Origin: an uncultured Actinomycetes bacterium | Lineage (GTDB): Bacteria > Actinomycetota > Actinomycetes > S36-B12 > CAIYMF01 | Direction: 5' to 3' | Assembly (NCBI GenBank): GCA_963843975.1 | Contig: CAWJMG010000003.1 | Coordinates: 1,530,001 to 1,562,000, forward strand | DNA length: 32,000 nt | Shown: positions 6,257 to 21,889 of the stretch, piece by piece | How positions within the stretch are numbered: the first letter of the stretch is position 1 | Layout: each line of letters opens with the position of its first letter | Program-made: the position numbers and the translations under genes | The notes under the pieces: model-generated | Seen by the model: only the letters and a program-made list of their open reading frames with translations | What the model was told of the DNA's origin: nothing | The model's database searches: none

Positions 6257-7288
6257 ATGAAGGCACTGATCTACGACGGCCCCGGCAAGATCCGTTGGGA
6301 CGAGCACCCGGACCCGAAGATCCAGCAAGACACCGACATCATCCTGAAGGTCACGTCGACGACCATCTGCGGCTCCGACACCCACATCATCAAGGGAGGC
6401 GTGCCGGACACCCCCTTCGGGACCGTCCTCGGCCATGAGGGCGTCGGGATCGTCGAGAAGGTCGGATCGTCGGTTCGCAACGTCGTCCCGGGCGACCGCG
6501 TACTGGCCACGTGCGTCACCGCATGCGGCTTCTGCCGGTTCTGCACCGCTCAGCAGTACGGCCAGTGCATCAACGGCGGCTGGGCCCTCGGACACCTCAT
6601 CGACGGCGTCCAGGCCGAGTACGCCCGCATCCCTTACGCGCAGAACTCGCTGTACAAGATCCCCGACAACCTCAGCGACGAGCAGGTCCTCTTCCTGACG
6701 GACATCCTCGCCACCGGCTACGAGGTCGGTGTCCTCATGGGGCACGTGCAGCCTGGTGACACCGTCGTCATCGTCGGTTCCGGGCCCGTCGGCCTGTCGG
6801 CCGTCCTGACCGCGAAGCTCTTCTCGCCGGCCAACCTCATCGTGGTCGACCTTGTCGAGTCGCGCCGCAAGAAGGCGCTCGAGCTCGGGGCCACGCACGC
6901 CGTATCCCCCGAGGAGGTGCACGACCTCGTCAACGACCTGACCGGCGGCCTGGGCGCCGACGTCACCATCGAGGCGGCCGGCTTCCCGGCTCCCTTCGAG
7001 CTGGCGGCCGACCTCGTGCGCTCGGGTGGCCGGATCGCCAACATCGGCGTCCACGAGGAGCCCGTGACCCTGCACATCGAGAAGCTCTGGGCCAAGCAGG
7101 TCACCATCACGACCGGGATCCCGTCTGCCCTCAGCGTGCCCGCGCTCATGAAGGCCATCGCCTCCGGCACGCTGGACGCCACGCCTCTCATCAGCCACCG
7201 GATCTCGCTGTCGGACACCGCCGAGGGTTACGAGATCTTCAAAAACGCTGCGGAGACCAACGCCCTCAAGGTGGTCATGACCGCCTGA
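6257..7288 (+). CDS. Zinc-dependent alcohol dehydrogenase (MDR family)
   Basis: Catalytic-Zn motifs ICGSD and GHEGVGIV, structural-Zn Cys cluster CVTACGFCRFC...C, and a VGSGPVG Rossmann motif. RBS GGAGGAAG lies just upstream of the ATG. Confidence 0.9.
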   Translation: MKALIYDGPGKIRWDEHPDPKIQQDTDIILKVTSTTICGSDTHIIKGGVPDTPFGTVLGHEGVGIVEKVGSSVRNVVPGDRVLATCVTACGFCRFCTAQQYGQCINGGWALGHLIDGVQAEYARIPYAQNSLYKIPDNLSDEQVLFLTDILATGYEVGVLMGHVQPGDTVVIVGSGPVGLSAVLTAKLFSPANLIVVDLVESRRKKALELGATHAVSPEEVHDLVNDLTGGLGADVTIEAAGFPAPFELAADLVRSGGRIANIGVHEEPVTLHIEKLWAKQVTITTGIPSALSVPALMKAIASGTLDATPLISHRISLSDTAEGYEIFKNAAETNALKVVMTA

Positions 7289-7355
7289 CAGGTACGAGGA
7301 CCCCGCACTCCGGCGAGCCCGGGCGCGGGGTGGATCCGCGGTCCGGGGCAGGTCC

Positions 7356-7393
7356 GAGGGCGTGGTCGCGGCGCGAGCCGGGGCCACGCCCTC
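7356..7393 (+). terminator. GC-rich stem-loop downstream of the ADH gene (candidate terminator, no U-tract)
   Basis: Perfect 10-bp inverted repeat GAGGGCGTGG (7356-7365) / CCACGCCCTC (7384-7393) with an 18-nt loop. Confidence 0.4.
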
Positions 7394-7445
7394 TCGGCAT
7401 CCCGGGCACCGTCCGACCGACCGCTCCAGCAATCGGAGGCCGTGC

Positions 7446-9233
7446 ATGGCCCGCTTCTCAGCCCCTGCCCCCTTCACGACCCGCCCGGACCTGCTTGGTC
7501 ATGTGGGGATGGTGGCCAGCACGCACTGGCTCGCGTCGGCGTCGGCGATGGCAGTCCTCGAGCGCGGCGGCAACGCCTTCGACGCATCCGTCGCTGCGGG
7601 GTTCGTGCTCCAGGTCGTGGAACCGCACTTCAACGGGCCTGGCGGCGAGCTCGTCGGGCTCGTGGCAGCGGCCGGGGACGCCCGTCCCACCGTCCTGGCC
7701 GGCGCTGCACCGGCACCGCTGCGGGCGACGCTCGAGAACGTGAGGGCGCTCGGCCTCACCTGCATCCCGGGGGCAGGGCCACTGTCCGCGCCCGCGACCG
7801 GCCAGTTCGACGCGTGGATGATCCTGCTCAGAGACCGCGGCACCTGGGATCTCGGCGAGGTGCTGTCCTTCGCGATCCACTACGCCCGCAAGGGGTTTCC
7901 GGTCACCAGCGGTCTCGCGCGGACGATAGCCAGCGTGGGCGAGCTCTTCGCCAGCCGATGGCCGACCTCCTACGAGCAGTGGATGCCAGGCGGCCGCGCT
8001 CCCGCCGTCGGCGATGTGCTTACCAACGGGCGACTCGCCTACACCTACGAGCGGGTCCTCGTCGAGACGTCTGGGGCGGCCGGCCGCGAGGCGCGGATCG
8101 AGGCAGCCCGCCGCACGTGGTCTGAAGGCTTCGTCGCCCGGGCTCTCGTCTCGTTCAACGAGATCCCGCACTGGCACCCGGAGGGCGGTGTGCAGCCCGG
8201 GTTCCTCACCTTCGAAGATCTCGCCGCGTACCGCGCGACGTACGAGGATCCGGTCTCGGCCGACTTCGCCGGGCACACCGTATGGAAGGCGGGCGCCTGG
8301 ACGCAGGGGCCCGCGCTGCTCCAGATGCTCGGCATCCTCGAGGGTCTCGAGCCGCATCAGAACGACCCCGCCGGCCCCGAGGGCGCTCACCTCGTGGTGG
8401 AGGCGATCAAGCTCGCCATGGCCGACCGCGAGGGTTACTTCGGCGACGTCGACGTGCCGCTCGCTGCCCTCCTGGACATCGGCTACCTGCGACGGCGGCG
8501 CGACCTCATCACCGAGCGTGCCGCCGTCGGGTTCCCGCCGGGCGCGGTCGAGGGATACACGCCGTACCAGCCTCCGCTCCGGGTCGCTGGCGGAGCGGAC
8601 CATGGCGCGACCGGCGAGCCGACCGTCCGCCGGAACGGCTCGACCCGGGGCGACACCTGCCACCTCGACGTGGTCGACCGGTGGGGCAACATGGCATCGA
8701 TCACCCCCTCGGGCGGCTGGCTGCAGTCCTCGCCGTACATCCCGGAGCTCGGCTTCGCCCTCAGCAGCCGCCTCCAGCAGACGTGGCTGGACCCGCGATC
8801 GCCGGCGGCGCTCCACCCTGGCCGGCGACCACGGCTCACCCTCTCCCCGACGCTGGTGACGCGGGACGGCGAGCCGGTCCTCGCCCTCGGGACGCCGGGC
8901 GGCGACGGGCAGGACCAGTGGCAGCTGCTGTACCTGCTGAGGACGCTGGTCGGCGGATGGACGCCGCAACAGGCGATCGACGCGCCGGCTCTGGTCTCGA
9001 CGGCCTTCCCTGACTCCTTCTGGCCCAGGACATGGGTTCCCGGCGGGGTCACCGTCGAGCCGCGCCTGGGCGAGGGCGTCATCGCCTCGCTGACCGACCG
9101 CGGGCACGTCGTCACCCGGGCCGACGACTGGACGCTCGGCAGGCTCTCCGCCGTCACCCGCGACCCGTCGACCGGGCTCCTGGGCGCGGCCGCGAACCCC
9201 CGCGGAGCGCAGGGCTACGCCGTGGGCCGGTGA
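7446..9233 (+). CDS. ggt: Gamma-glutamyltransferase family protein
   Basis: GMVASTHWLASASAMAVLERGGNAFDA N-terminus, autoprocessing/nucleophile region GDTCHLDVVDRWGNMASITPSGG, and C-terminal GTPGGDGQ. ATG at 7446 with GGAGG 6 nt upstream. Confidence 0.85.
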   Translation: MARFSAPAPFTTRPDLLGHVGMVASTHWLASASAMAVLERGGNAFDASVAAGFVLQVVEPHFNGPGGELVGLVAAAGDARPTVLAGAAPAPLRATLENVRALGLTCIPGAGPLSAPATGQFDAWMILLRDRGTWDLGEVLSFAIHYARKGFPVTSGLARTIASVGELFASRWPTSYEQWMPGGRAPAVGDVLTNGRLAYTYERVLVETSGAAGREARIEAARRTWSEGFVARALVSFNEIPHWHPEGGVQPGFLTFEDLAAYRATYEDPVSADFAGHTVWKAGAWTQGPALLQMLGILEGLEPHQNDPAGPEGAHLVVEAIKLAMADREGYFGDVDVPLAALLDIGYLRRRRDLITERAAVGFPPGAVEGYTPYQPPLRVAGGADHGATGEPTVRRNGSTRGDTCHLDVVDRWGNMASITPSGGWLQSSPYIPELGFALSSRLQQTWLDPRSPAALHPGRRPRLTLSPTLVTRDGEPVLALGTPGGDGQDQWQLLYLLRTLVGGWTPQQAIDAPALVSTAFPDSFWPRTWVPGGVTVEPRLGEGVIASLTDRGHVVTRADDWTLGRLSAVTRDPSTGLLGAAANPRGAQGYAVGR

Positions 9234-9248
9234 CCTGGTTGAACCCTG

Positions 9249-9986
9249 CTACAGGTGCCGTCCGCCAGTGATCTCCAGGACGGCCCCCGTCATGTAGCTC
9301 GACAGGTCGCTCGCCAGGAACAGCACGACCGAGGCGACTTCCTCGGGCTCCCCCGCCCGCTGCATCGGGATCTCTGCCAGCTTCGCGTCCCAGACGTGCG
9401 GCGGCATGGCCTCCGTCATCGGGGTCCTGATGAGTCCCGGCGCCACGGCGTTGACCCGCACCCCGTCGTGAGCGACCTCCTTGGCCGCTGCCTTGGTGAG
9501 CCCGACGATGCCTGCCTTGGCCGCCGAGTAGTTCGTCTGACCGACGAAGCCGACCTTCCCGGAGATGGACGAGAGGTTGATGATCGATCCGCGCTTCTGG
9601 GCGCGCATGACCTCGGCCGCCGACCTGGTGCCGTTCCAGCACCCCTTGAGGTGCACGGCGACCACCTGGTCGAACTGCTCCTCCGTCATCTTGCGCATCG
9701 TGGCGTCCCGCGTGATGCCGGCGTTGTTGACCATCACATCGAGCGAGCCGTACCGGTCGACCGCGAACGACACCAGGTCGTTGACGTCCTGGGAGGACGT
9801 GACGTCGCACCGGGCACCGCTGGAGACGTGGGTGCCGAGCTCGTCGACCGCACGGGCCACCTGCGCCTCGTCGACGTCGCCGATCACCACCCGGGCGCCG
9901 TGGGCCACCAGCGTCGTGGCGATCGCGAGACCGATCCCCTGCGCACCGCCCGTCACGACGGCCGTCCGTCCCTCGAGGTCGATCAC
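9249..9986 (-). CDS. SDR-family oxidoreductase (3-oxoacyl-ACP reductase FabG-like)
   Basis: [12 protein letters not shown] and YSAAK motifs. GTG start overlaps the stop of the biotin carboxylase gene (GTGA at 9983-9986). Confidence 0.9.
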
Positions 9987-11359
9987 GTCGTGCTCCCTGC
10001 GTCAGATGCCCACCAGCCGGATGCCAGGAGGTCTTCCACCGTGGTGGTCGTGGCGGTCCCAGCACGGACGTCGTCGTGCTCGAGCAGGCCGCGTGAGAAG
10101 CGCAGCGTCGTCGCGACGCCGGCGATGTGCGTCGCATCGATGGCGCCCACCGCCGCTCTGATGGCCGAGTCACGGTCCTCGGCGTGGACGAGCAGCTTCG
10201 CCAGCAAGGAGTCGTAGAAGGGCTGCACTATGGAGCCGTTCTCCACACCCGTGTCGATGCGCAGCCCTGGGCCCGACGGGAAGGTGCACGTCGTGAGAAG
10301 GCCTGGGGAGCCTGCGAATCCGGCACTCGGGTCCTCGGCGTTGATGCGGACCTCGAGCGCCACCCCGCGCGCGACGATGTCGTCCTGCACCAGGTCCAAC
10401 TGCTCGCCGAGCGCGGACCGGATCTGACGCTGCACCAGGTCGACGCCGGTCACCATCTCGGTGACCCCGTGCTCGACCTGGATCCTGGTGTTCATCTCGA
10501 TGAACGCCGCGGTGCCGTCGCCCGACACGAGGAACTCCACCGTCCCGGCGGAGTCGTACCCGACCGACCGGGCGAGGTCGACCGCGGCCCGGCAGAGCAG
10601 GTTGCGCGTGCCGGGGTCGAGACCCGGAGCGGGCGCCTCCTCGATCATCTTCTGCCTGCGTCGCTGCAGTGAGCAGTCTCGGTCGTAGAGGTGCACCACG
10701 TTCCCGTGCCGGTCGGCGAGGATCTGCACCTCGATGTGACGGACGTCGGTGAGCGCCTTCTCGAGGTACAGCGACGGATCGCCGAAGGCAGCCGCCACCT
10801 CGCGCTGCGCCGCGACGAAGGCGCCGGCGAGGGACACCTCGTCGGGCACGGGACGGATCCCTCGTCCGCCTCCACCCGCAGCCGCCTTGAGCAGCACGGG
10901 ATATCCCAGCGCGCCCGCGGCTGCGGCGGCGGAGTCAACACCGTCGAGCACGCCTGAGCCGGGCACGAGGGGGACGCCGGCGGCCTGCGCCGCCAGACGC
11001 GCTCGAGCCTTGTCCCCCATGAGGTCGATGACCTCCGGCCTCGGACCTATCCAGATCAGGCCTGCCTCGACAACGGCCCGTGCGAAGGCCGCGTTCTCGG
11101 AGAGGAAGCCGTACCCGGGATGCACGGCATCGGCGCCGCAGGCGAGCGCCGCGGCGAGCACGGCCTCCTGGGACAGATAGCTCTTGGCCGCCGGGGCCGG
11201 TCCGATCGCGACAGCGCTGTCGGCGAGGCGCACGTGCAGGGACTCGGCGTCGGCGTCGGAGTGGACGGCGACTGCCTCGAGACCCAGCTCGTGGCAGGCC
11301 CGGATCACGCGGACGGCGATCTCGCCCCGGTTCGCCACGAGCACTCGCACCGGCGTCAT
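9983..11359 (-). CDS. Biotin carboxylase (AccC-type ATP-grasp subunit)
   Basis: [53 protein letters not shown] overlap with the BCCP gene at 11356-11359. Confidence 0.92.
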
Positions 11360-11610
11360 GCGCCGCCGAGACCGACGCGCGCCACGACACCACCCATGGC
11401 TACGACGTCGCCGTCCTCCACGAGGAACTCGAGAAGGGTGCCGTCGGCCCCGGCGGTAAGCTCGTGGAACATCTTCATCACCTCGATCACCCCGATCACC
11501 TCGCTCGTGATCACGCTCGCGCCCTCGAGCACGTACGGGGCAGACCCCGGCTCGGGCCGGCGGAAGAAGGTTCCGGGCATGCCCGTCACGACCTCGTGGA
11601 TCGTCGACAT
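11356..11610 (-). CDS. Biotin carboxyl carrier protein (short, biotinyl-domain only)
   Basis: 84 aa with the biotinylation motif IEVMKM in a typical biotinyl/lipoyl hammerhead context. Confidence 0.85.
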   Translation of the reverse strand: MSTIHEVVTGMPGTFFRRPEPGSAPYVLEGASVITSEVIGVIEVMKMFHELTAGADGTLLEFLVEDGDVVAMGGVVARVGLGGA

Positions 11611-11632
11611 CAGGAGTTCCTCTCGTGGTGGG

Positions 11633-12613
11633 TCACGGGTGCTCGCGGAGTGTGGCGACGGCTCGACCGATCCTCAGCGCGCGCTGCCGGCGGGCGGCGA
11701 GGGCCTCGTCGAGGGTCACCGGCACGAACACGACCTGGTCGGGGTACTTGGCCTGGGCGAGGACGTCGAGGTCGGCGGAGATGACGGTGCCGATCGTCGC
11801 GTAGCCACCACCGGTGACGGCGTCGCGGTGCAGGCAGATCAGCTCGGAGCCGCTGGGGGCCTGGATCGACCCGAGGGGGTAGCCCAGGTTGACCACGTTG
11901 CTCGGGTCGGCTCCCGCACCGAGCGGCGCCTCACGGTCGGCGAAGGTGAGCGAGGGGCCGGTCAGCCGGTACCCCGTGCGGTTCGCCTCCGGGCTCACGG
12001 TGAAGACGCCGCTGTGGAGGGCCTCGTCGGCCTCCGCCGTCAACCGGTAGTCGCACAGTCCGCGAGTCACCCGCAGCTCTCCCGCCGAAGGCGCCGGCCA
12101 GAGCTCCTCCGGCACCCGGGCTCCGATCGCGGCCTCCGCCGCCACCTCTATGCCGACCGGAAGCACGTCGCCGGCCTTCAGCGGCCGACCCGCATGCCCG
12201 CCGATGCCGGAGAGGACGTACGTCGAGCGGCTGCCCATGACGAGAGGGACGTCGATCCCTCCCCGGACCGCGAGGTACGCGCGGGCACCCGAGCGCATCA
12301 GGCCGAATCGGAGCTCCTGACCTGCCTCGACGTGCACCGCCGACCAGAGCGGCACCGCGTCGCCGTCCAGCGTCACGTCGATGTCGGCGCCCGTCACCGC
12401 GACGATCGCAGCATGTCCCCACCGCAGGACCGGACCGACGAAGGTGATCTCGAGCGTCGCAGCGGTGGCCGCGTTCCCGACGAGCGCGTTCGCCAGGTCG
12501 TGCGAGCAGAGGTCGAGAGCGCCGGACGGTGGCAGCCCCATGGCGTAGGTGCCGGGGCGCCCTCGGTCCTGGACGGTCGTGTAGAGCCCGGGCGACAGGA
12601 TCTCGATGCTCAC
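11633..12613 (-). CDS. pxpC: PxpC / KipA (allophanate hydrolase subunit 2, AHS2) family, biotin-dependent carboxyltransferase-like
   Basis: VSIEILSPGLYTTVQDRGRPG...GALD...NRTGYRL...GSIQ(x)PSG is typical of AHS2. The GTG at 12613 overlaps the pxpB stop (GTGA). The ORF-track extension to 13048 overlaps pxpB and is Arg-rich. Confidence 0.88.
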   Translation of the reverse strand: MSIEILSPGLYTTVQDRGRPGTYAMGLPPSGALDLCSHDLANALVGNAATAATLEITFVGPVLRWGHAAIVAVTGADIDVTLDGDAVPLWSAVHVEAGQELRFGLMRSGARAYLAVRGGIDVPLVMGSRSTYVLSGIGGHAGRPLKAGDVLPVGIEVAAEAAIGARVPEELWPAPSAGELRVTRGLCDYRLTAEADEALHSGVFTVSPEANRTGYRLTGPSLTFADREAPLGAGADPSNVVNLGYPLGSIQAPSGSELICLHRDAVTGGGYATIGTVISADLDVLAQAKYPDQVVFVPVTLDEALAARRQRALRIGRAVATLREHP

Positions 12614-13509
12614 GACAGCACCTCGAGCAGCGACGCGGTCGTGCTCTCGGGGGAGGCCTGGAAATCGCCGAGATCGAGCTCCACCGGGTGGATCCGATAG
12701 CGGTACGTGCCGCCCACGACCTGTCCGCGCACGTCCTCGTACTCGGACATGTCGATCGGTCGGTACTTGAAGATGTCGCCGCTGCGCGGGAGGACGGGGG
12801 AACCGCCGAAGTCCACGAGGCGGTGCTCGAGGTCGAAGACGGGCACCGCGCTGCGACCGAAGAGCTGGAAGCCGCCGGCTCCCCTCACGGGGTAGATCGT
12901 GGTGAATGCACCTCCGTGACCGACCGCGCGCTCCGGGGTGTCGGTGCGGGGCCGCAGGTACTTCGGCGTCTGCATCTGACGCTCGTCGGGCACGAGCTGG
13001 TAGCACTCGGCATTCCCCGGGACGAAGCCGAGGAAGGTCGCGATCCACGGCGCGGCGGAGTGCGCCTCGATGAACGAGTCGACGTCGTGCCCGTTGAGTC
13101 GTGCGCAGTACTCGAGGTCGTCCAGCTCCGGCGACTGGTGGCGGTCACGGAAGCGCATCAGCGTCTCGACGGTCCAGGGGTCTCGGTAGAGCACGGGGAT
13201 CTCGATCAAGCGCGCGCGGATGCGGAGGTGCTGGGTGCCGCCGGCGCGCCGGTGGAGGTCCTCGAGCACGGGGCGGAGCTGCCGAGGATCGATGACGTCC
13301 GGGTCGACCCGCAGCATGTAGCTCACGTGGGCAGGACAGATGTCGACGACGCCGTCGAGCTCGAGGCCGGCGAGCTCCTCCGTGATGGCCACCACGCGGA
13401 GGGTCGTCAGCAGGCTCATCCCCTCCGACAGCTCGACGAAGACGAACTCGTCGCCGCCGTGGCTGAGACGGGAACCGTCGCCCAGCGTCACGCGATCCGC
13501 GTCAGGCAC
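12610..13509 (-). CDS. pxpB: PxpB / KipI (allophanate hydrolase subunit 1, AHS1) family
   Basis: IEIPVLYRDPW, FLGFVPGNAECYQL and GGAFTTIYPVRGAGGFQLFGRS are AHS1-like. The start is assigned to the GTG at 13509 and is uncertain (alternative at 13491). It overlaps the pxpA stop by 8 nt. Confidence 0.8.
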   Translation of the reverse strand: MPDADRVTLGDGSRLSHGGDEFVFVELSEGMSLLTTLRVVAITEELAGLELDGVVDICPAHVSYMLRVDPDVIDPRQLRPVLEDLHRRAGGTQHLRIRARLIEIPVLYRDPWTVETLMRFRDRHQSPELDDLEYCARLNGHDVDSFIEAHSAAPWIATFLGFVPGNAECYQLVPDERQMQTPKYLRPRTDTPERAVGHGGAFTTIYPVRGAGGFQLFGRSAVPVFDLEHRLVDFGGSPVLPRSGDIFKYRPIDMSEYEDVRGQVVGGTYRYRIHPVELDLGDFQASPESTTASLLEVLS

Positions 13510-14280
13510 GAGCGTCCCCGATCTCCGCGGGCGCGTGGACAGAGCGGATGACGTGACCGGCGGACTCGACGCGCCTGCGCACGGCCCGCGCCACCTCGGG
13601 CGCGTTCGGGCGGTCGCCGTGGACGCAGATCGACTGCGGGGCCAGGGGAACACGCTTCCCGGACACCGTGACGACGTAGCCCTCGATGAGCGTCATCGCC
13701 CTGTCGGCCACGAGCTTCCGGGTCCTTCGCGGCCGGCACGGACTCGATGATGTTGACGCCGTCGTCGTCGTACTCGAGGTCGGCCGGCGCGTCGGTGACG
13801 ACGACCAGACCGGCGGCGCGGACGGCGTCGGCTGCCGCACCCGGTGCCGTGACGAGCGCCAGCCCGTCCTGCACCCCTTGGAGGGACCGAGCCAGGCGCA
13901 ACGCCAGCTTCCGGGGAGCCGGCCACCTGGCCGTAGAGCGAGCCGTGCGGCTTCACGTGCGTGAGCCGCACGCCCTCCGTCGCCGCGATCGCCTGCAGCG
14001 CACCGGTCTGGTAGAGGATGTAGTCGACGGCGTCGTCCTCCGACACCGCGAAGCGTCGCCGACCGAACCCCAGGAGGTCGGGGTAGCCCGGGTGCGCCCC
14101 GACGGCCACGCCGGCGTCCCGGGCGAGGACAACGGACGTCCGCATGTGGGCGGGGTCGCCCGCGTGGAAGCCGCACGCGATGTTGACGGTCGTGACGAGC
14201 TGCAGGAGCTCGGCGTCCGACCCGAGGATCCAGCGGCCGAAGCTCTCTCCTGCGTCCGCGTTGATGTCGACGTAGGCCAT
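13502..14280 (-). pseudogene. pxpA: PxpA / LamB-YcsF family lactamase (5-oxoprolinase subunit A-like), split over three frames by two 1-nt insertions
   Basis: Frame 1 (14280 to ~13915): [15 protein letters not shown]...[11 protein letters not shown]...[17 protein letters not shown]. Frame 2 (~13908 to ~13722): [10 protein letters not shown]...[20 protein letters not shown]. Frame 3 (to 13502): [12 protein letters not shown]...SICVHGDRPNAPEVA. Joined, these give a colinear full-length LamB-family protein. Confidence 0.85.
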
Positions 14281-14324
14281 GGGCTGGGTCTCCCTCGTGT
14301 GGTCGTACGGGTCGTCGGACGTCG

Positions 14325-16283
14325 TCACGGCGCGACCGGGGAGGTCGTGGACAGTGCGCGGTCGAGGGCCTCGACGTACAGGTCGACGTGCTCGCGCCGG
14401 AACGTCATGGGGGGCTTGATCTTCAGGACGTTGTCCCGGCTGCCCGTGGGGTAGGTCAGCACGCCGTCGTCCTTGAGCGCCTCGGTGACCGCGAGCGCCT
14501 CGCTGACGGCGGGCTCCTTCGTGGCACGGTCACGGACCAGCTCGACGCCGAGGTACAGGCCATGCCCCCGAACGTCCCCGACCAGCTCGTGGCGTCCGGC
14601 CAGCGAACGCAGCTCCTCGAGCATGTAGCCCCCCACGTCCAGGGCGTTCGCCTGCAGGCCGTCGTCCTCGACGATGTCCAGGACCGCCGTGCCGATCGCG
14701 CAGGACACCGGGTTGCCGCCGAAGGTGTTGAAGTACCTCACACCGTCGTCGAACGCGTCCGCGATCTCACGAGTGGTGACGACGACGGCGAGCGGATGGC
14801 CGTTGCCGAGCGGCTTGCCCATCGTGACGATGTCCGGCACGACGCCGTGGCTCTCGAAGCCCCAGAAGTGGGTGCCCAGCCTTCCGACCCCGACCTGCAC
14901 CTCGTCGGAGATGCACAACGCCCCCTCTGCCCGGGCGGCAGCGAAGGCGGTGGCGAGGAAGCCCTCGGGCAGCCTGATGTTCCCCGCCGTGCCCATGAGC
15001 GACTCGGCGATAAACGCTGCCGGTGCGCGGTCCTGGGCGACGAGGCCGCGGATGACGTCCGCCGCGTCCTGCCCGTACCTCATGCCGGCCTGGGGGTCGT
15101 CCTTGCCGTAGGCGCCGCGGTAGAGGTCGGGCGTGGCGACCTCGTGGGTGGTATCGGGCCTGCCCCGTCCCCCGCTCCCCTTGTAGCGGTTGGGGCTGAT
15201 GCCCATCACGGCGGCCGTGTTGCCGTGATACGCGCCGTCGATGACGACGACGTCCTGCCGTCCCGTCACCTGTCGACTGATGCGCAGCGCCAGGTCATTG
15301 GCCTCGCTTCCCGTGCAGACCAGGAAGACGACCTCGAGGGGTGCGGGCAGAGTCGCCACCAGACGCTGGGCGTAGGTTGCCATGCCCTCGTAGAGGAAGC
15401 GGCTGTTGGTGTTCAGCTTGTGCAGCTGGCGGGATGCCGCAGCGACGACCCGGGGCTCGGCGTGCCCGACGTGGGTGACGTTGTTGATCGAGTCTAGGTA
15501 GGCGAGGCCGTTTTCGTCGTACATCCACACGTCGCGCCCACGCACCAGCTTCGGCGGACGCCGATAGTACGCGCGCTGCGAGCGCGCGAGCCTCATGTCG
15601 CGCATGGCCACGACATCGACCGCTCGAAGGCGCGCGACGCCAGCATGAGCATCCGGGATCCCCAACAGCGACAACGGATCGAGCTGCCCGTCGAGGACAC
15701 CGTCCGCCGAGAGCTCGGACGGCCGTACCCACTGCCTCGGGTCGCCGACCGGACCGGTGTGGACCTGGACCTGGACCGAGGACCCCAGCGGGTCGCCGTC
15801 ATCGGCAACGGCTGCGGTTCCGATGGCATCCCCGGGGGCCAGGAGGTCGCCGGTGGCCACGTCGACGTCGAGCCCGAACCAGCACGACCAGAGGTCGCTG
15901 CCCGCCGATCCAGCCGCAGGGTGCCGGAGGACCAGCGGCCCCTCGCTGGCGGCCTCCACCACGGACGCTACCGGCGCCACGAGCCGCTCGCCGGCGGCCA
16001 TCAGGAGCATGCAGCCCGCTTGGACCGTCGCCGGCTCGAGGGCGCCCTGTCGACGTCGCGCAGCACGGGGCATGAGCGGGGTCAGGTGCGCCACGATCCC
16101 CGCTCGCTCGCGACGGTCGCCCAGCAGCCCGAGGACCGCTGCCTCGAGCGCTTCCCCGTCGGTGAGGTCGAGGTCGTCGAAGAGGTCACTCTCGGGTCGG
16201 AGGTCGACATCGCGCCACACCACCGGCCGTGCCAGCGGCCCGCCGTCGTGCACGGACAGCCCGTCTGCAGAGACCTGGCTCAT
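14325..16283 (-). CDS. Class-III aminotransferase-fold PLP enzyme (phospho-lyase-like) with a ~215-aa N-terminal M23-like domain
   Basis: C-terminal ~435 aa carry class-III AT motifs ([25 protein letters not shown]-lysine [11 protein letters not shown]). The N-terminal part has a degenerate LytM/M23-like pattern (LVLRHPAAG...[13 protein letters not shown]...VQVQVH). The ATG at 16283 overlaps the kinase stop (ATGA). Confidence 0.85.
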
Positions 16284-17350
16284 GCCTGCTCGCTCCTCAA
16301 CCTGTCGAGCGCCCGGGCCGGGTGCACCCCGGCCAGCTGGGCGATCGCCGGCCACGTGTGGCGCATCCGCTCGCGGCCGTACTCGTCGTCATTCCCAGAC
16401 GTGCGACGCGTCCAGGTGGTCGCGTTCACGCAGAGGCGGGCGGCGGCGACGGGGAGCACCACCTCGATCTCCGCGTCCGACAGCGGCGCGAGCGACCGCC
16501 AGCCGGCGACCACCGAGGCCAGCGCCCCTACGGCATCCGGCTGACGGAGCACCGCGTAGGCGGCCGCCACGATGAGCTCGGCGACCCTGACCGAGCTGAG
16601 CGTGTCGCCGAAGTCGAGGACGCCGGTCAGCCGCTGGCCGCCCTCGGGCGTGCTCTCGACGAGAAGGTTGAAGTCGTTGAGGTCCTGGTGCACGACCGCG
16701 CCGGGCAGGGCGCAGAGGCGCGGCAGCGCGGTGCCGAAGGCCTCCATGATGCGGGCGACGTGGTCGCGCCGGACGCCGTCGTCGACCGACCCGACGCTCA
16801 CGGCGACGGCCTCGTCGGCCCGCCGGAGGTCCCAGTAGTGCGTGGCGGGCACCGCCGACGGCGGGAGCCCCTCGAGCGCGAGCGCGACCCGCGCGGCCAG
16901 GCGACCCGTCTCGACCAGCTGGTCGCGGGCGGGCGGCCCGGCCGAGGCCACCATGCGGCCGGGGAGCCAGGACTGGACACGGACGACCTGACCGTCGCCG
17001 GCGTTGACCTGGAGGCTGCCGTCCCGTGCCCTGACCAGACGTGGCACGGGCAGCGAGGGATCGGTGGCAGCGACGTGGTCCAGGACGACGGCCTGCCATT
17101 CCTGCCCGGCCGGGCCCACCTTGACGAGGTGGGCCCGGCCGTCGGCAGCGACGACCCGGAGGTTGCGGTCGACGTCGCCACCGAGAGACACAGCGGTGGC
17201 GGCCTCGATCCCGTACGCGTCGTGGAGCAGGCCGCGCAGACCGTCGAGCGGGTCAGGCGTGGTCACGCCGTTGGCCGTCCCGGCAGAAGTGCGCACACTC
17301 GCCAGCCAACCACCGCGCGGCGGTCGGGGGCATGTGGCGTGAGAGGACAT
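16280..17350 (-). CDS. APH-fold phosphotransferase (aminoglycoside/hydroxylysine-kinase-like)
   Basis: Catalytic loop VVHQDLNDFNLLV and metal-binding VLDFGDT. ATG at 17350 preferred, with AGGGG upstream. Confidence 0.8.
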   Translation of the reverse strand: MSSHATCPRPPRGGWLASVRTSAGTANGVTTPDPLDGLRGLLHDAYGIEAATAVSLGGDVDRNLRVVAADGRAHLVKVGPAGQEWQAVVLDHVAATDPSLPVPRLVRARDGSLQVNAGDGQVVRVQSWLPGRMVASAGPPARDQLVETGRLAARVALALEGLPPSAVPATHYWDLRRADEAVAVSVGSVDDGVRRDHVARIMEAFGTALPRLCALPGAVVHQDLNDFNLLVESTPEGGQRLTGVLDFGDTLSSVRVAELIVAAAYAVLRQPDAVGALASVVAGWRSLAPLSDAEIEVVLPVAAARLCVNATTWTRRTSGNDDEYGRERMRHTWPAIAQLAGVHPARALDRLRSEQA

Positions 17351-17395
17351 CGCACCCCTGTCGTTGTGGGCTCGACACAACAACGTCTCCAGTCG

Positions 17396-18721
17396 TCAGC
17401 CGGAGGTGCCGTCGTAGGCCCACGGCGCCCAGGGCAGCGGGGCGCCCGCGTACTTGGTCGCCCGCACGTCACCGGATCGGGCGTGCCCCTCGAAGAGCTC
17501 CACGCGGCTCGCCCGCCCGCACATCTCGCCGAGCTGCGCGCTGGAGAAGGTGTCGCGCACCTCCTGGTAGGTGACGGTCTTCAGGTACTTGCCCACCCAC
17601 AGTCCGCCGGTGTAGCGCGCGCTCTTCCGGGTGGGCAGGGTGTGGTTGGTCCCAATCACCTTGTCGCCGTATGACACGCACGTGCCCTCGCCCAGGAACA
17701 GGGCGCCGTAGTCGCGCATTTTCTCCAGCGCCTCACGAGGCTCCTGGGTCAGGATCTGAACGTGCTCGCTCGCGAACTCGTCGGCCAGCGCGTACGCGTC
17801 GTCGAGGTCGTCCACGACGATGACCTGGCCGTGGTCGCGCCAGGCAGGTCCCGCGAAGTCGCGCGTCGGCATGTCGGGGAGGATCCGCTCGACGAGCGCC
17901 ATCACCTCACGGGCGAGCGGCTCCGAGGTCGTGATGAGGATGGCCGGCGAGTCCGGTCCGTGCTCGGCCTGGCTCAGGAGGTCCACCGCCACGACGAAGG
18001 GGTCGGCGTGCTCGTCGGCGACGATCAGGATCTCCGTCGGCCCGGCCAGCAGGTCGATGCCCACCTCGCCGAAGAGCTGGCGCTTGGCCTCGGCAACGTA
18101 CGCGTTGCCCGGCCCGGCAAGGAGGTCGACCTTGCCGATCGTCTCGGTGCCCAGCGACATCGCGGCGACGGCCTGCACACCGCCCAGGAGGTGGATCTCG
18201 TCGGCGCCGGCGAGATGTAGTGCGGCGACCGTCGCCTCGGGGATCTCGCCGCGGATGGGGGGCGTGCAGGCGGTGACCCGCTCGACGCCCGCGACCTTGG
18301 CGGTCACGACGGTCATGTGAGCCGAGGCGACGAGGGGGTAGCGGCCACCGGGCACGTAGGCGCCCGAGGCACGGACCGGGATGTTCTTCTGCCCGAGGAA
18401 GACGCCGGGACCGGTCTCGACCTCGAAGTCGTGGAGGGAGTCGCGCTGGTGCTGCGCGAACGTGCGCACGTTGGACTGGACGGCCTTGATGTCGGCGATG
18501 ACCTGCATGGGAACTCGCGCCACGATGCGCTCGACCTCCTCGGCGCTCAGCCGGAACTGCGGGGGCGACCATCCGTCGAACTTCTCCGAGTACTCGCGCA
18601 CGGCCTCGTCCCCGCGGGCGCGGACGTCGGCGACGACCGAGGCCACGGTCTCGCTCACGTCGGCGATCGTGACCGTGCCGGGCTTCGCGGGCTGGGCGGT
18701 CTTGATGCTGTTCCTGGCCAT
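17396..18721 (-). CDS. Histidinol-dehydrogenase-family NAD-dependent dehydrogenase (HisD paralog)
   Basis: 441 aa with SQAEHGPDS, GDKVIGTNHTLPT and LHLAGADEIHLLGGVQAVAAM. RBS AAGGAG lies 7 nt upstream of the ATG. Its catabolic context argues for a paralog rather than the biosynthetic hisD. Confidence 0.85.
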   Translation of the reverse strand: MARNSIKTAQPAKPGTVTIADVSETVASVVADVRARGDEAVREYSEKFDGWSPPQFRLSAEEVERIVARVPMQVIADIKAVQSNVRTFAQHQRDSLHDFEVETGPGVFLGQKNIPVRASGAYVPGGRYPLVASAHMTVVTAKVAGVERVTACTPPIRGEIPEATVAALHLAGADEIHLLGGVQAVAAMSLGTETIGKVDLLAGPGNAYVAEAKRQLFGEVGIDLLAGPTEILIVADEHADPFVVAVDLLSQAEHGPDSPAILITTSEPLAREVMALVERILPDMPTRDFAGPAWRDHGQVIVVDDLDDAYALADEFASEHVQILTQEPREALEKMRDYGALFLGEGTCVSYGDKVIGTNHTLPTRKSARYTGGLWVGKYLKTVTYQEVRDTFSSAQLGEMCGRASRVELFEGHARSGDVRATKYAGAPLPWAPWAYDGTSG

Positions 18722-18766
18722 GCTGTGACTCCTTCGCGAGTACCTGATGTGCCTCCACCGTCGCCC

Positions 18767-18778
18767 GCATACGTATGC
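18767..18778. promoter_or_regulatory. Perfect 12-bp palindrome GCATACGTATGC (candidate LacI-family operator O1)
   Basis: Read directly. It has the central CG typical of LacI-family operators. It lies immediately downstream of a TTGACC -35-like hexamer on the minus strand (18781-18786), upstream of the HisD-like gene. Confidence 0.55.
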
Positions 18779-18822
18779 CGGTCAAGGTGCTAATGTGATG
18801 AATCCAGAGCAATCCACCCGTT

Positions 18823-18834
18823 GACTACGTATGC
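18823..18834. promoter_or_regulatory. Imperfect copy GACTACGTATGC of the same palindrome (candidate operator O2)
   Basis: Matches O1 at 10 of 12 positions. It lies 10 nt upstream of the regulator GTG start at 18844 and overlaps a TTGACT hexamer. Confidence 0.45.
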
Positions 18835-18843
18835 GAGGTCCCA

Positions 18844-19835
18844 GTGGCGGTCACCAGCCACGACGTGGCGCGGCTCGCGGGCGTGTCGCAGCCGACGGTG
18901 TCGCGGGCGCTCCGCGACAGCCGCGGCGTGTCCGCCCCCACCCGGCGCAAGGTGCGCGAGGCCGCACGCGCTCTGGGCTACGTCCCGATCCAGTCGGGGC
19001 GGGCGCTGTCCACGCAGTCCACCGGGCGGGTGGGCATCGTCAGCGCCGAGCTCACCAACCCCTTCTATCCCGCGATCATCGAGCCGCTGCACGACCGGCT
19101 GGCCGACGCTGGCTACCGCACGATCCTGATCACCGACCGGGGCGAGGCTCCCGTCGAGGTGGAGCCGCTGATCGACGGCTCCCTCGACGGCGTGATCGTG
19201 ACGACGAGCACGCTGTCGAGCAGCCTGCCCGAGGAGCTCCGTCGACGCGGCGTCCCCTGCGTCCTTGTCAACCGGGCCGTCGACACCGTCGGCGTGGACC
19301 GGTGCGTCAGCGACAACCTCGAGGGCGGCGCGATGGTTGCCGACTTCCTCCTGGACCTCGGGCACCGGCGCATCGCCGCCATCTTCGGGCCGGGCACCAC
19401 GAGCACCGGCCACGAGCGGGCGGTCTCGTTCCAGCAGCGTCTCGCCGATCGCGGTGCAGCCATGCCGCTTCCCTCGTCCGGGAGGTGGCCTACTCGGCGG
19501 AGAACGGCCGGACCGCTCTGCTCGAGCTGCTGGCGGAGCAGCCGAGCGCCGTCTTCTGTGGCAACGACGTGCTGGCGTTCGGAGCACTGAACGCCGCAGC
19601 AGCGTCGGGCATCGACGTTCCCCGAGACCTCACGGTCGTCGGATGGGACGACATTCCCATGGCCGCCTGGGAGGTCTTCGACCTCACGACCGTGCGCAGC
19701 GACCTCCACGACATGGCCGAACGGGCGGTCGACCTGCTGGTGCACCGGATGGAGAACCCGGACGCCCCCAGCCGGTCCGTCGTGGTCGCCCCCCGCCTGG
19801 TGCTGAGGGGAACGCACGCCCCGCAGCAGGTCTAA
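18844..19835 (+). pseudogene. LacI-family transcriptional regulator with a frame break at ~19465-19485
   Basis: N-terminal HTH (VTSHDVARLAGVSQPTVSRALR) and the first part of the sugar-binding domain are in frame 18844..19590. The rest (EVAYSAENGRTALLELLAEQPSAVFCGNDVLAFGALNAAAASGIDVPRDLTVVGWDDIP...) is in the 18831..19835 frame. Confidence 0.85.
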
Positions 19836-19854
19836 CGACGAGACGGCCGATGGG

Positions 19855-20724
19855 TCAGATGAGCGAGTCGGCGTCCGCGGCCTGCCCGTAGAGGTTCTCG
19901 ACGGCGTGCTTGTGGAAGTCGCGGAAAGAGTCGTCGAGGCGACCGAGAGGCTCCGGCGCCTTGGGCGTGCGCTCGAAGGCCGCGAGGTCGTGGCTCACGA
20001 GCATGGTCGCGTCGGTCGCCCTCGCCAGCGCCGTCAGCCGGTGCATCGACGCCACGGCCGCCGTCGCATCGCTGGTGATGCCACCCGGCGTGTCCAGCGC
20101 GATGTTGTCCTGGCAGTTGGACGCATCTCCAGTGATGATGACCGTCCCCGCCTCGGGGATGTCGTACAGGGCGATGGACTGGTGCCCCGGCGTGTGGCCG
20201 GGCGTCGAGATCAGGTGCATCCCGGGCAGGATGCACCAGTCGCCCTCGGCGAGCTGCCAGCGGAAGTTCGGGTGGTCGTAGTCGGTCCGGACGTACGGGA
20301 AGGTCGCGAACCGATCGGGGTAGGCGACCCAGCGGTACTCGGCCTTCTGCACTACGTGGAGTGCGTCCGGGAAGAAGCGGCCGCCTCCGGAGTGGTCGTG
20401 GTGCAGGTGCGTGTAGACGACCATCTTGATGTCGTCCGCGCCGAGCCCGAGCAGCTTCAGCTGCGCGTAGGGGTGGTTCTCGGGCGACATGATCGGCGTC
20501 GCCGCACGGGCCAGCGGCACCCCCCACACCCGGTCGGCGTCCTCGATGACATCCGGGTCGTTGCCCGTGTCGATGAGTACGTACCCGCGCGTGGTCTCGG
20601 CGAGGAACATCTGCACGGGGATCCGGATCCGCTTGCCCGGGTCGCGGCCGGACACCATGACGCTCGCGTCGAGCTCCAGCTGGCCGCCATCGAGGACGTA
20701 GAGCTTCTTGACCACGGTCTTCAT
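19855..20724 (-). CDS. MBL-fold hydrolase (N-acyl-homoserine-lactonase-like)
   Basis: HLHHDHSGG (HxHxDH), TPGHTPGH and VSHD motifs. ATG at 20724 with AGGAGG 7 nt upstream. Confidence 0.8.
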   Translation of the reverse strand: MKTVVKKLYVLDGGQLELDASVMVSGRDPGKRIRIPVQMFLAETTRGYVLIDTGNDPDVIEDADRVWGVPLARAATPIMSPENHPYAQLKLLGLGADDIKMVVYTHLHHDHSGGGRFFPDALHVVQKAEYRWVAYPDRFATFPYVRTDYDHPNFRWQLAEGDWCILPGMHLISTPGHTPGHQSIALYDIPEAGTVIITGDASNCQDNIALDTPGGITSDATAAVASMHRLTALARATDATMLVSHDLAAFERTPKAPEPLGRLDDSFRDFHKHAVENLYGQAADADSLI

Positions 20725-20857
20725 CGCGCTGCCTCCTGGCATAGGACGGGAGAGGGATCACGGAACGGACTCCTCGGGGCCACGGCGGTCCAAGACACGT
20801 GACACGTCGTCTCTTCATTTCCCACGGTCGTCGACCGTCGTGCGTCCGATCCGCTGG

Positions 20858-21889
20858 TCATCGGGCCCCCGGGGGCGGGCGCCGGTCGAGGGCCGACAGC
20901 CGGGACAGGTGCTCGAAGGACGGTCGGGCGGTGCCCGCCTCCAGCTCGTGGACGATCTCGACGATGGCGTCGTTCAACGGGGTCGCCACCCCGGAGCGAC
21001 GGCCCGCTGCGGCGACGCCGCCGTTGATCACCCCGACCTCGGTGGGCACGCCTCGTTCGACGTCCTGGAGCATCGAGGCCTTCGTGGCACCGATCCGGGA
21101 GACGAGCTCCTCGAGCACAGCCTCCGCGGCCACCGACGGCTCGCCGTCACGAACGGTCAGCGCGACGGGGTCCACCCCGGCGACCTCGTCGAGCTCGACC
21201 CCGAGCGCCGTCGCCACGTCGTACCCCTCCGTCCACACACCGAGGACGAGCCGGCGTCCGCGGCTGTCGGCCACGACGTCGCTGTAGACGCCGCCGACGA
21301 CGGTACCCAGGCCGGACAGGGAGCTGTTGAGCAGGAGCTTGGACCACACCTGGCCCGTGATGCGGTCCGTGGCGTGCGTAGGCGCGACGTTCTCGAGGAG
21401 AGATACGAGAGCCGTGAGCCGCGCGCCGAGGCGCCCAGAGGGGTCGCCGACCGAGAGCGGTGCCAGCGTGGTCTGCAGGACGTGTCCGGGCCCGACGAAC
21501 GTCGCCCCGAAGCTGCACGTGCCCACCAGCATCCGGTCGGGCCCGACGATGTCGGCGATGACGTCCTGCACGAGGCCGTTGCCGAGCGAGACGAACGTGT
21601 CGATGTCGCACGCGCGGCCAAGACCCTCAAGCACCTCGGGGAGCTTCGGGGCCTTGAGCGTGATCAGGGCGAAGTCGAAGGTCCCCGTGAGCTCCGCCAT
21701 GTCGCCGACGGCCTCGAGCCGGGTCGACAACTCCGTCCCGTCCGGCAGGCCGACGACGAGCCCGACGTCGCGGCAGGCCCGGACGTGGTCGAGGTTGTTG
21801 TCCAGTGCCACGACGTCCACGCCCGCGAGCGCCAGCCTGGCGGCGAAGACGCTGCCCAGCGCCCCCGCACCGACCACCAGGGCCCTCAT
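20858..21889 (-). CDS. Ketopantoate reductase (ApbA/PanE) family oxidoreductase
   Basis: N-terminal Rossmann motif MRALVVGAGALGS, KLLLNSSLSGL, and C-terminal SMLQDVERGVPTEV typical of the family. Confidence 0.8.
   Translation of the reverse strand: MRALVVGAGALGSVFAARLALAGVDVVALDNNLDHVRACRDVGLVVGLPDGTELSTRLEAVGDMAELTGTFDFALITLKAPKLPEVLEGLGRACDIDTFVSLGNGLVQDVIADIVGPDRMLVGTCSFGATFVGPGHVLQTTLAPLSVGDPSGRLGARLTALVSLLENVAPTHATDRITGQVWSKLLLNSSLSGLGTVVGGVYSDVVADSRGRRLVLGVWTEGYDVATALGVELDEVAGVDPVALTVRDGEPSVAAEAVLEELVSRIGATKASMLQDVERGVPTEVGVINGGVAAAGRRSGVATPLNDAIVEIVHELEAGTARPSFEHLSRLSALDRRPPPGAR

Follow-up and report, generated by a model that had tools for sequence, protein, structure and literature searches.

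In fungal lactam utilization (lamA/lamB), a LamB-family protein serves as partner. The human kinase and phospho-lyase enzymes were reportedly paired in the 2012 work of Veiga-da-Cunha et al. The prokaryotic 5-oxoprolinase PxpABC is used by C. glutamicum for growth on 5-oxoproline (PMC13274462). In A. baumannii the mumTLUHC genes encode LamB, KipI/KipA-type and biotin carboxylase proteins, and with urea as the source of nitrogen, growth requires the biotin carboxylase (PMC5050338). The PxpC and PxpB homologs MSMEG_0435-0436 (Rv0263c/Rv0264c) have been solved in a structure that holds the biotin of the biotin carboxyl carrier protein (BCCP) domain on a long-chain acyl-CoA carboxylase (PMC13012033). 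Finally, HpsN and HisD dehydrogenases are distinguished by a diagnostic loop, which reads GRY(A/S)H in HpsN and GSAPL in HisD (PMC11382572). Relatives of these proteins are encoded together on the minus strand at 9249-18721 of the stretch examined here, a window of 32,000 nucleotides from the aquatic-type genome of an uncultured Actinomycetes bacterium. The window is contig 3 (C3) 1530001-1562000 of a 4.19 Mb assembly (3 contigs, 71.6% GC, 92.9% complete). Nine co-directional open reading frames (ORFs) encode, in order of transcription, a HisD-like dehydrogenase with the motif GRYPL, an APH-fold kinase, a class-III-fold pyridoxal phosphate (PLP) enzyme, PxpA, PxpB, PxpC, a BCCP, a biotin carboxylase (BC) and a FabG-like SDR. 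A LacI-family repressor gene diverges from the first of them.

On balance we lean towards a real and probably co-transcribed catabolic array of three modules, whose linked chemistry would release ammonia and a carbon skeleton. The first-pass annotation knew of no pathway with this combination, and no described pathway matching the gene set was found in the literature searched. Each part has a named relative and is in that sense already known (ETNPPL/PHYKPL/HYKK, NF004799/NF004800, PxpABC, urea carboxylase/mum/lam, MSMEG_0435/0436, HpsN/HisD). What is new is that the kinase/phospho-lyase and PxpABC meet at a conserved junction and form one orthologous cassette, that this cassette is joined in the present lineage to a LacI/GRYPL-dehydrogenase regulon, and that the GRYPL branch itself is recognized.

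Three modules in one gene array

The ORF coordinates, together with Pfam and NCBIfam profile searches, confirmed the nine minus-strand genes and the families first assigned to them (Table 1). The junctions also proved to be as first described. ATGA overlaps join kinase to lyase (16280-16283) and BCCP to BC (11356-11359), GTGA overlaps join pxpB to pxpC (12610-12613) and BC to SDR (9983-9986), and pxpA overlaps pxpB by 8 nt (13502-13509). The gaps are 12 nt from the HisD-like gene to the kinase gene, 22 nt from pxpC to the BCCP gene and, the largest, 44 nt from the lyase gene to pxpA. Most starts are preceded by Shine-Dalgarno-like motifs, and the TTG start of the kinase at 17383 has GGAG upstream. 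Because of these overlaps and motifs, the nine genes are probably a single co-transcribed unit. A weak terminator-like hairpin at 17387-17405 (minus strand) overlaps the HisD-like stop codon just before the kinase start. A sigma-70 promoter scan, which is uninformative for a high-GC genome, returned 0 promoters.

While the packing bears out the claim of one unit, this is not one conserved pathway unit, and the modules occur separately elsewhere. Comparison of neighborhoods showed that a core cassette recurs in actinobacteria and that the array is three joined modules rather than one ancestral nine-gene unit. Module A is the LacI repressor with its operator and the GRYPL dehydrogenase, and occurs in diverse settings throughout Actinomycetota. 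Module B comprises the kinase, the phospho-lyase with its degenerate M23 domain, and PxpA-PxpB-PxpC, with or without BCCP and BC. Module C is the FabG-like SDR.

A close relative of the locus is a metagenomic contig (L096) whose lyase is 63% identical to that of the window. The two are syntenic from an FAD monooxygenase gene (5009) to a rhodanese gene (22780), an interval that takes in lacI and the HisD-like, APH, lyase, pxpA, pxpB, pxpC, BCCP and BC genes. A second contig (L011) has the same arrangement up to its end inside pxpA. After the BC gene, where the window has the SDR, L096 carries a PucR-like regulator (HTH_30), of which no ortholog was found anywhere in the source genome. An SDR ortholog of 72% identity is present in a neighboring HADH-SDR-MBL cluster of both L096 and L011, and the SDR is lineage-specific at the 3' end of the array. 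The SDR and the PucR-like regulator are swapped between window 9249-9986 and L096 336-1076 and 16264-17481. Beyond lacI, the MBL, KPR and rhodanese genes are reordered relative to L096. The swap and the reordering together indicate that this 20-kb region is prone to rearrangement. In the convergent operon of the window, a Zn-alcohol dehydrogenase (6257-7285, plus strand) is 91.5% identical to its L096 counterpart, whereas its neighbors are far less conserved (gamma-glutamyltranspeptidase (GGT) 62%, lyase 63%, kinase 48%). The difference points to recent exchange or to constraint of unusual strength.

Elsewhere the modules appear in other combinations. One contig (carrying P0004) has APH-lyase-PxpA-PxpB-PxpC with BCCP and BC and is devoid of HisD, LacI and SDR. 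In Actinomadura formosensis (L012) the kinase and lyase of the cassette are fused, BC and BCCP are absent, and a CUT2-type ABC transporter is encoded alongside the cassette, as is a PucR-like regulator. The cassette of a Nocardioides metagenome-assembled genome (MAG; L093) likewise has a PucR-like regulator and an ABC transporter beside it, together with an aldehyde dehydrogenase. Two loci in all have CUT2-type ABC systems. In a Nanopelagicales MAG (L018), APH-lyase-pxpA lies ~5 kb from a separate pxpA-BCCP-BC-pxpB-pxpC cluster. Between these two clusters (12773-17154) lie genes for a luciferase-like monooxygenase, an EthD protein, a DUF1537-type acid-sugar kinase and a PdxA-family dehydrogenase. 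BCCP and BC genes are therefore part of the cassette in the window, L096 and the P0004 contig, and nearby in L018. The HisD-like gene, for its part, stands beside a divergent LacI gene in Aeromicrobium and in other contexts in Rhodococcus opacus and Geodermatophilus, in all three without the remaining genes of the array.

These arrangements bear on a possible, though doubtful, alternative in which the array consists of independent nitrogen-scavenging modules, tied together by location and expression alone. The kinase and lyase would then deaminate an amino alcohol (ethanolamine, 1-amino-2-propanol), PxpABC with BC and BCCP would be a split urea or guanidine-like carboxylase, and the HisD-like enzyme would serve a third substrate. 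The HisD-like/LacI module clearly travels alone, as this alternative would have it, and the PucR-type regulators found beside the cassette in relatives are typical of nitrogen-compound catabolism. Against it, at least three actinobacterial lineages share the order APH-lyase-PxpA-PxpB-PxpC, and lyase and pxpA genes overlap or nearly abut in several loci. In a maximum-likelihood tree of the lyase domain, moreover, all six Pxp-linked sequences fell in one clade (support 100/98), which is unexpected for unrelated functions. The sister clade holds fusions from Streptomyces, Actinomadura vinacea and Mycolicibacterium that are without Pxp neighbors.

Among 300 genomes sampled from the class, a lyase of >50% identity was found in only one other, where it lies beside a kinase gene with no Pxp genes within the stretches examined. 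A search of 27 other species of the genus did not return the long PxpB, and no close DNA relatives were found in the genus. Given the rarity of the lyase and the absence of the long PxpB from the species searched, the array was taken to be an accessory trait.

Table 1. Features of the array and of its divergent control region (window coordinates).
Feature	Position	Strand	Profile match or remark
HisD/HpsN-family NAD/Zn dehydrogenase, GRYPL subtype	17396-18721	-	Pfam Histidinol_dh 5e-138
APH-fold small-molecule kinase	16280-17383	-	Pfam APH 2.9e-18; start TTG 17383 or ATG 17350
Degenerate M23-like N-domain + class-III-fold PLP phospho-lyase (predicted), 652 aa	14325-16283	-	N-domain residues 1-220, phospho-lyase part 221-652; Aminotran_3 over residues 246-644
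pxpA (LamB/YcsF)	13502-14280	-	Pfam LamB_YcsF; three frames
pxpB (PxpB/KipI-type carboxyltransferase C-D subdomains), 299 aa	12610-13509	-	Pfam CT_C_D
pxpC (PxpC/KipA-type carboxyltransferase A-B subdomains)	11633-12613	-	Pfam CT_A_B 4e-85
Stand-alone BCCP, 84 aa, EVMKM biotinylation motif	11356-11610	-	Pfam Biotin_lipoyl; NF005457 94 > cut-off 87
Biotin carboxylase (ATP-grasp)	9983-11359	-	Pfam N, ATP-grasp and C domains; NF009471 1e-181
FabG-like SDR	9249-9986	-	Pfam adh_short_C2; NCBIfam
Divergent control region	18722-18843		Between the HisD-like gene and lacI
LacI-family repressor gene	18844-19835	+	Pfam LacI HTH + Peripla_BP_1 (N part), Peripla_BP_3 (C part)

Enzyme families and the LacI operator

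The class-III-fold protein is strongly predicted to be a member of the phospho-lyase subgroup (ETNPPL/PHYKPL/A1RDF1) and not a transaminase. Its best solved relative is human ethanolamine-phosphate phospho-lyase ETNPPL (PDB 6TOR, 1.9e-124), followed by the Arthrobacter phospholyase A1RDF1 (PDB 5G4I, 3.1e-91). The nearest non-lyase, dialkylglycine decarboxylase, scored only 1.2e-57. The Schiff-base lysine segment TMGKP(M/L)GNGHP aligns to 6TOR and is invariant in the homolog alignment. The kinase translation has an HQDLNDFN catalytic loop and an LDFGD metal-binding motif. Kinase and lyase match positions 17-338 and 437-1010, respectively, of the same NF004799/NF004800 model; being separate genes that overlap by ATGA, they miss its full-length fusion cut-off of 1128 (lyase 619.4, kinase 202). 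Many close homologs are single kinase-lyase proteins of ~1000 aa, and in nearly all of 80 related loci, from many phyla, the two are adjacent or fused. The kinase/phospho-lyase pair proposed in the first-pass annotation was upheld by these matches. Since the lyase is about as close to the human ethanolamine-phosphate enzyme as bacterial enzymes get, this result is also one in favor of independent modules in which the pair deaminates an amino alcohol.

The N-domain of the lyase (residues 1-220) had been labeled M23-like. It gave no Pfam match even at E ≤1, whereas the equivalent domain in four distant homologs matched PF01551 Peptidase_M23 (1e-14 to 5e-16). The window domain aligns to the M23 domain of one of the distant homologs with a pairwise E = 4e-6, which supports the homology. 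The zinc motifs HxxxD and HxH, however, are replaced (TVQAGCML and VQVQV, versus TIHIGIDL and HLHFQ in distant homologs). The label holds for ancestry and not for zinc ligands, and the domain is accordingly described here as a catalytically dead M23 homolog.

Two further pairs of kinase and phospho-lyase-like genes were seen in the genome at C3:1728563-1731355 (L099) and C3:1431178-1433345 (L100), which makes three such modules. Their lyases are 42-43% identical to the window lyase, and one of the pairs lies in a 1406-codon open frame.

The HisD-like protein matched HpsN best among solved structures (8V35, 1.5e-111; HisD 1K75, 5.8e-76). GRYPL and YGDK motifs were present in 120/120 close homologs, and the proteins are 78-85% identical across actinobacterial orders. 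The equivalents of HpsN Lys353, Glu318, His319 and Asp352 are kept, and the Zn ligands Gln and His, the catalytic Glu-His pair, an Asp-Lys pair and the C-terminal His are conserved. In place of the sulfonate-binding His126 of HpsN, all 120 close homologs have Leu, and identity as the sulfonate enzyme HpsN was rejected because this His126 is missing. Identity as the HisD of histidine biosynthesis was rejected as well. The loop is GRYPL and not GSAPL, and a separate housekeeping hisD, 37% identical to the HisD-like protein, lies at C3:957368-958600. The GRYPL group is best placed as a third, very conserved branch of the HisD/HpsN family. The HisD-like protein of the array is predicted to oxidize a primary alcohol to the acid by four electrons.

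In the control region, a perfect palindrome, GCATACGTATGC, at 18767-18778 abuts the TTGACC -35-like hexamer of the HisD-like promoter. A second copy (18823-18834), with a 10/12 match, adjoins the lacI start. An operator of the form G[C/T]ATACGTATGC next to TTGAC(A/C) was found 38-53 nt before the HisD-like start in five loci, the window, L096 (7414-7423), L011, Aeromicrobium (L101) and Rhodococcus opacus (L102, 7946-7955). LacI orthologs of 48-56% identity are encoded near HisD-like genes in Aeromicrobium, R. opacus and Geodermatophilus. In distant actinobacteria, then, the conserved palindrome next to TTGAC(A/C) defines a LacI regulon of GRYPL-type HisD-like genes. Control of the HisD-like gene by LacI through the predicted operator is well supported by this conservation. 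To the first-pass annotation, the operon appeared to be under the divergent repressor. That claim stands for the promoter of the first gene, while control of the eight downstream genes would depend on read-through.

The Pxp proteins of the array resemble urea carboxylase. BC, PxpC and PxpB align to consecutive segments of the urea carboxylase model TIGR02712 (positions 3-442, 448-762 and 806-1079). PxpB scored 95 bits against that model and 64.8 against TIGR00370, below its cut-off of 145.55. PxpC passed TIGR00724 (257.8 > cut-off 230.2) and scored 236 bits against the urea carboxylase model. Its score against the 5-oxoprolinase equivalog NF045499 was 205.5, below the cut-off of 500, and its structural matches were PDB 5DUD, 3VA7 and 3MML. 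The pxpA ortholog passes the subfamily model NF003814 (272.7 vs 226). A second, shorter pxpA-pxpB-pxpC set lies at C3:1605921-1608157, ~60 kb from the operon; in the assembly, the pxpB of this second set seems to have a frame break as well. Both sets pass only NCBIfam subfamily or domain models, and only the relative urea carboxylase score tells them apart (PxpC 236 bits in the operon, 139 in the second set). Judged by these scores, the operon set is a paralog that is closer to urea carboxylase than to canonical PxpB/PxpC. With BCCP and BC it provides the parts list of a split urea-carboxylase-like enzyme, in keeping with the biotin-linked Pxp parts noted in the first annotation.

The alignment of the four parts, one after another, along the urea carboxylase model is a further point for independent modules, as is the need for the mumTLUHC biotin carboxylase in growth of A. 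baumannii on urea (PMC5050338). Two negative results speak against them. No allophanate hydrolase (amidase-type) domain was found in the nine operon genes or in those flanking genes that were examined. Riboswitch control of the array, for instance by a guanidine (ykkC) riboswitch, was rejected as there was no Rfam match at E ≤0.1 in 7000-21000.

The Pxp set might instead serve repair or salvage. In amino-alcohol catabolism, an intermediate that is phosphorylated or gamma-glutamylated would spontaneously give rise to 5-oxoproline or a homologous lactam, which the Pxp set would reopen together with the convergent GGT. 5-Oxoproline arises from gamma-glutamyl compounds, and a GGT gene converges on the operon in both the window and L096. 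The known role of PxpABC as a 5-oxoprolinase that sustains 5-oxoproline growth in C. glutamicum agrees with this idea (PMC13274462). We nevertheless consider it improbable. The genome already has a second pxpABC set, both 5-oxoprolinase equivalog cut-offs were missed by the operon proteins as described above, characterized PxpABC does not need a dedicated BC and BCCP, and the GGT gene belongs to a different operon on the opposite strand.

Frame breaks in pxpA and lacI

pxpA had first been read as one ORF. In the assembly its N-terminal, middle and C-terminal thirds are in three frames, which switch at two copies of CCGGAAGCT (13906-13914 and 13713-13721). Both breaks consist of a single extra base at GAAGCT within this same 9-mer, a third copy of which lies in the window at 28938-28946. 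All three pieces are 70-89% identical to an intact ortholog, and the true frame is without a stop. Intact pxpA orthologs of 250-254 aa are present in related loci and, at the first break, lack the extra base where the alignment is clear. In lacI a -1 break in CCGCTTCCCTC near 19465-19470 leaves two frames as assembled. Aligned to the intact L096 and L011 orthologs, the two lacI pieces showed 76% and 53% identity.

Frame switches were then assessed across the whole genome from the third-position GC phase on either side of every motif occurrence. At GAAGCT sites (AGCTTC on the other strand), 105 '+1' switches were counted versus 23 '-1' switches. GAAGCTT showed a frame switch at 61% of its occurrences, relative to a background of ~8%. 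The comparison motif GAGCTC was symmetric (213 '+1' vs 185 '-1'), and smaller excesses were seen at GAGGCT, TGCAGCT and CTCGAG. The GAAGCT-linked switches occur in several codon phases, which argues against translational recoding. Recoding at the pxpA breaks, including a quadruplet reading of GCTN, was rejected on the grounds that in-frame GCT is read normally inside pxpA, that codon phases differ and that orthologs have no extra base.

From the genome-wide statistics, pxpA and lacI are very probably intact in the organism and the breaks artefacts of assembly. Motif-linked insertion of single bases in a long-read consensus fits the one-directional pattern of switches, and a completeness of 92.9% in only 3 contigs was counted in support of the artefact reading. 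The breaks are, of course, present in the deposited sequence. Taken at face value, they would describe a decaying operon. With two frameshifts in pxpA and one in lacI, both genes would be true pseudogenes, which would leave the array without its Pxp step and with a derepressed promoter. We think this highly unlikely. Both pxpA breaks fall in the same 9-mer, the genome-wide excess at GAAGCT is strong and one-directional and spans several codon phases, and the pxpA pieces have retained both their similarity to the intact ortholog and a true frame free of stops.

A working model and its relation to known systems

From the established chemistry of the families we infer the following order of steps for the favored reading, a catabolic array with linked chemistry. 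The LacI-type repressor would bind the conserved palindrome over the promoter of the GRYPL dehydrogenase, and this enzyme would oxidize a 2-substituted primary alcohol to the acid. The APH-fold kinase would phosphorylate a hydroxyl next to a primary amine, and an aldehyde or ketone would be left once the PLP phospho-lyase had eliminated phosphate and ammonia. BC would load CO2 on BCCP-biotin at the expense of ATP. The carboxyltransferase-like fold of PxpB/PxpC, which in mycobacterial homologs holds BCCP-biotin (PMC13012033), would N-carboxylate a stable amide (lactam or urea-like), as urea carboxylase does, and PxpA would hydrolyze the activated amide. This amide may be a ring-closed precursor of the kinase substrate, or a cyclized by-product of it that needs reopening. 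The FabG-like SDR probably moved in at the 3' end, where a close relative has a PucR-like activator, and would handle the alcohol, aldehyde or keto end together with the HisD-like enzyme. In net terms, a hydroxylated amino or lactam compound would be turned into ammonia and a carbon skeleton with a carbonyl or carboxyl group. Amide and amino alcohol are placed on one route because of the strict linkage and the single-clade origin of the Pxp-linked lyases.

A more specific version is rather unlikely to be right in full and is offered as a tentative proposal. In this undescribed pathway a biotin/ATP-driven amidolyase would open a hydroxylated lactam. The resulting vicinal amino-alcohol acid would be phosphorylated and lose phosphate and ammonia, and providing or removing the alcohol or aldehyde end would fall to the GRYPL enzyme and LacI regulon. 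One can speculate that the route runs from 4-hydroxy-2-pyrrolidinone via 4-amino-3-hydroxybutyrate to succinate semialdehyde, or that it serves a 5-hydroxylysine-derived or piperidone-type analog.

Several observations weigh against a single linked route. In Actinomadura and Nocardioides the cassette has neither BC nor BCCP beside it, and therefore biotin dependence is not universal or is supplied in trans. Called HisD-like and kinase genes are 111-170 nt apart in the closest relatives, compared with 12 nt here, and a PucR-like regulator accompanies the cassette in those relatives. The HisD-like gene may therefore belong to another regulon, and here it may be only proximity that links it to the cassette. 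The hairpin at its stop codon points the same way, although the terminator scan found 1 hairpin where 1.5 were expected by chance and it is probably not meaningful. Finally, the A. baumannii genetics tie a related biotin/LamB operon to urea and not to lactams (PMC5050338).

The locus touches three widespread enzyme groups: the kinase-M23-phospho-lyases, PxpABC with its own biotin carboxylase, and the GRYPL branch. In actinobacteria the kinase-lyase and biotin-linked Pxp groups travel together as one cassette, which narrows the search for substrates to compounds that are both an amino alcohol and a cyclic or otherwise stable amide. The locus provides a concrete test case for how biotin-linked Pxp enzymes work, and the conserved LacI operator is a simple handle for finding the inducer. 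Should the lactam-opening pathway be true, it would give first functions to three protein groups at once. Should there be two unrelated nitrogen-scavenging modules instead, the result is still a correction of annotation: not HisD, not acetyl-CoA carboxylase and not GABA (gamma-aminobutyrate) aminotransferase.

Compared with known systems, the eukaryotic HYKK/PHYKPL/ETNPPL enzymes and A1RDF1 share with the locus an APH-fold kinase and a class-III-fold PLP lyase. The degenerate M23-like N-domain and a cassette with PxpABC and biotin parts are found here and not with the eukaryotic enzymes. The NF004799/NF004800 fusions (PRK06148/PRK06149) have the same kinase-M23-aminotransferase parts in a single protein of ~1000 aa, whereas here there are two genes overlapping by ATGA and the M23 zinc ligands are lost. 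HpsN, the (R)-2,3-dihydroxypropane-1-sulfonate (DHPS) 3-dehydrogenase (Cupriavidus, 8V35), has the same fold as the HisD-like protein and is its closest solved relative; Bilophila HpsN also oxidizes L-cysteinolate. Unlike HpsN and HisD, the protein described here has the motif GRYPL, and it is without the sulfonate-binding His.

The PxpABC 5-oxoprolinases (E. coli YbgJKL, B. subtilis KipI/KipA/YcsF, C. glutamicum pxpTABC) comprise the same three families encoded by adjacent genes. In the window, by contrast, PxpB is ~80 aa longer and urea-carboxylase-like, the equivalog cut-offs are missed, a dedicated BCCP and BC are encoded, and the genome has a second pxpABC set. Urea carboxylase/urea amidolyase (K. 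lactis, PDB 3VA7, 5I8I) has the same BC, carboxyltransferase A-B, carboxyltransferase C-D and BCCP parts in a polypeptide of ~1200 aa; here they are spread over four polypeptides, with no allophanate hydrolase and with linkage to a kinase/phospho-lyase. The A. baumannii mum system has a LamB-family partner, as does the array (PMC5050338). The window PxpC and PxpB match PDB 3MML and 9YX5, which relates them to MSMEG_0435-0436. The partner of that complex is the housekeeping AccA3 and its role is apparently regulatory, whereas the present array supplies its own BCCP, BC and PxpA.

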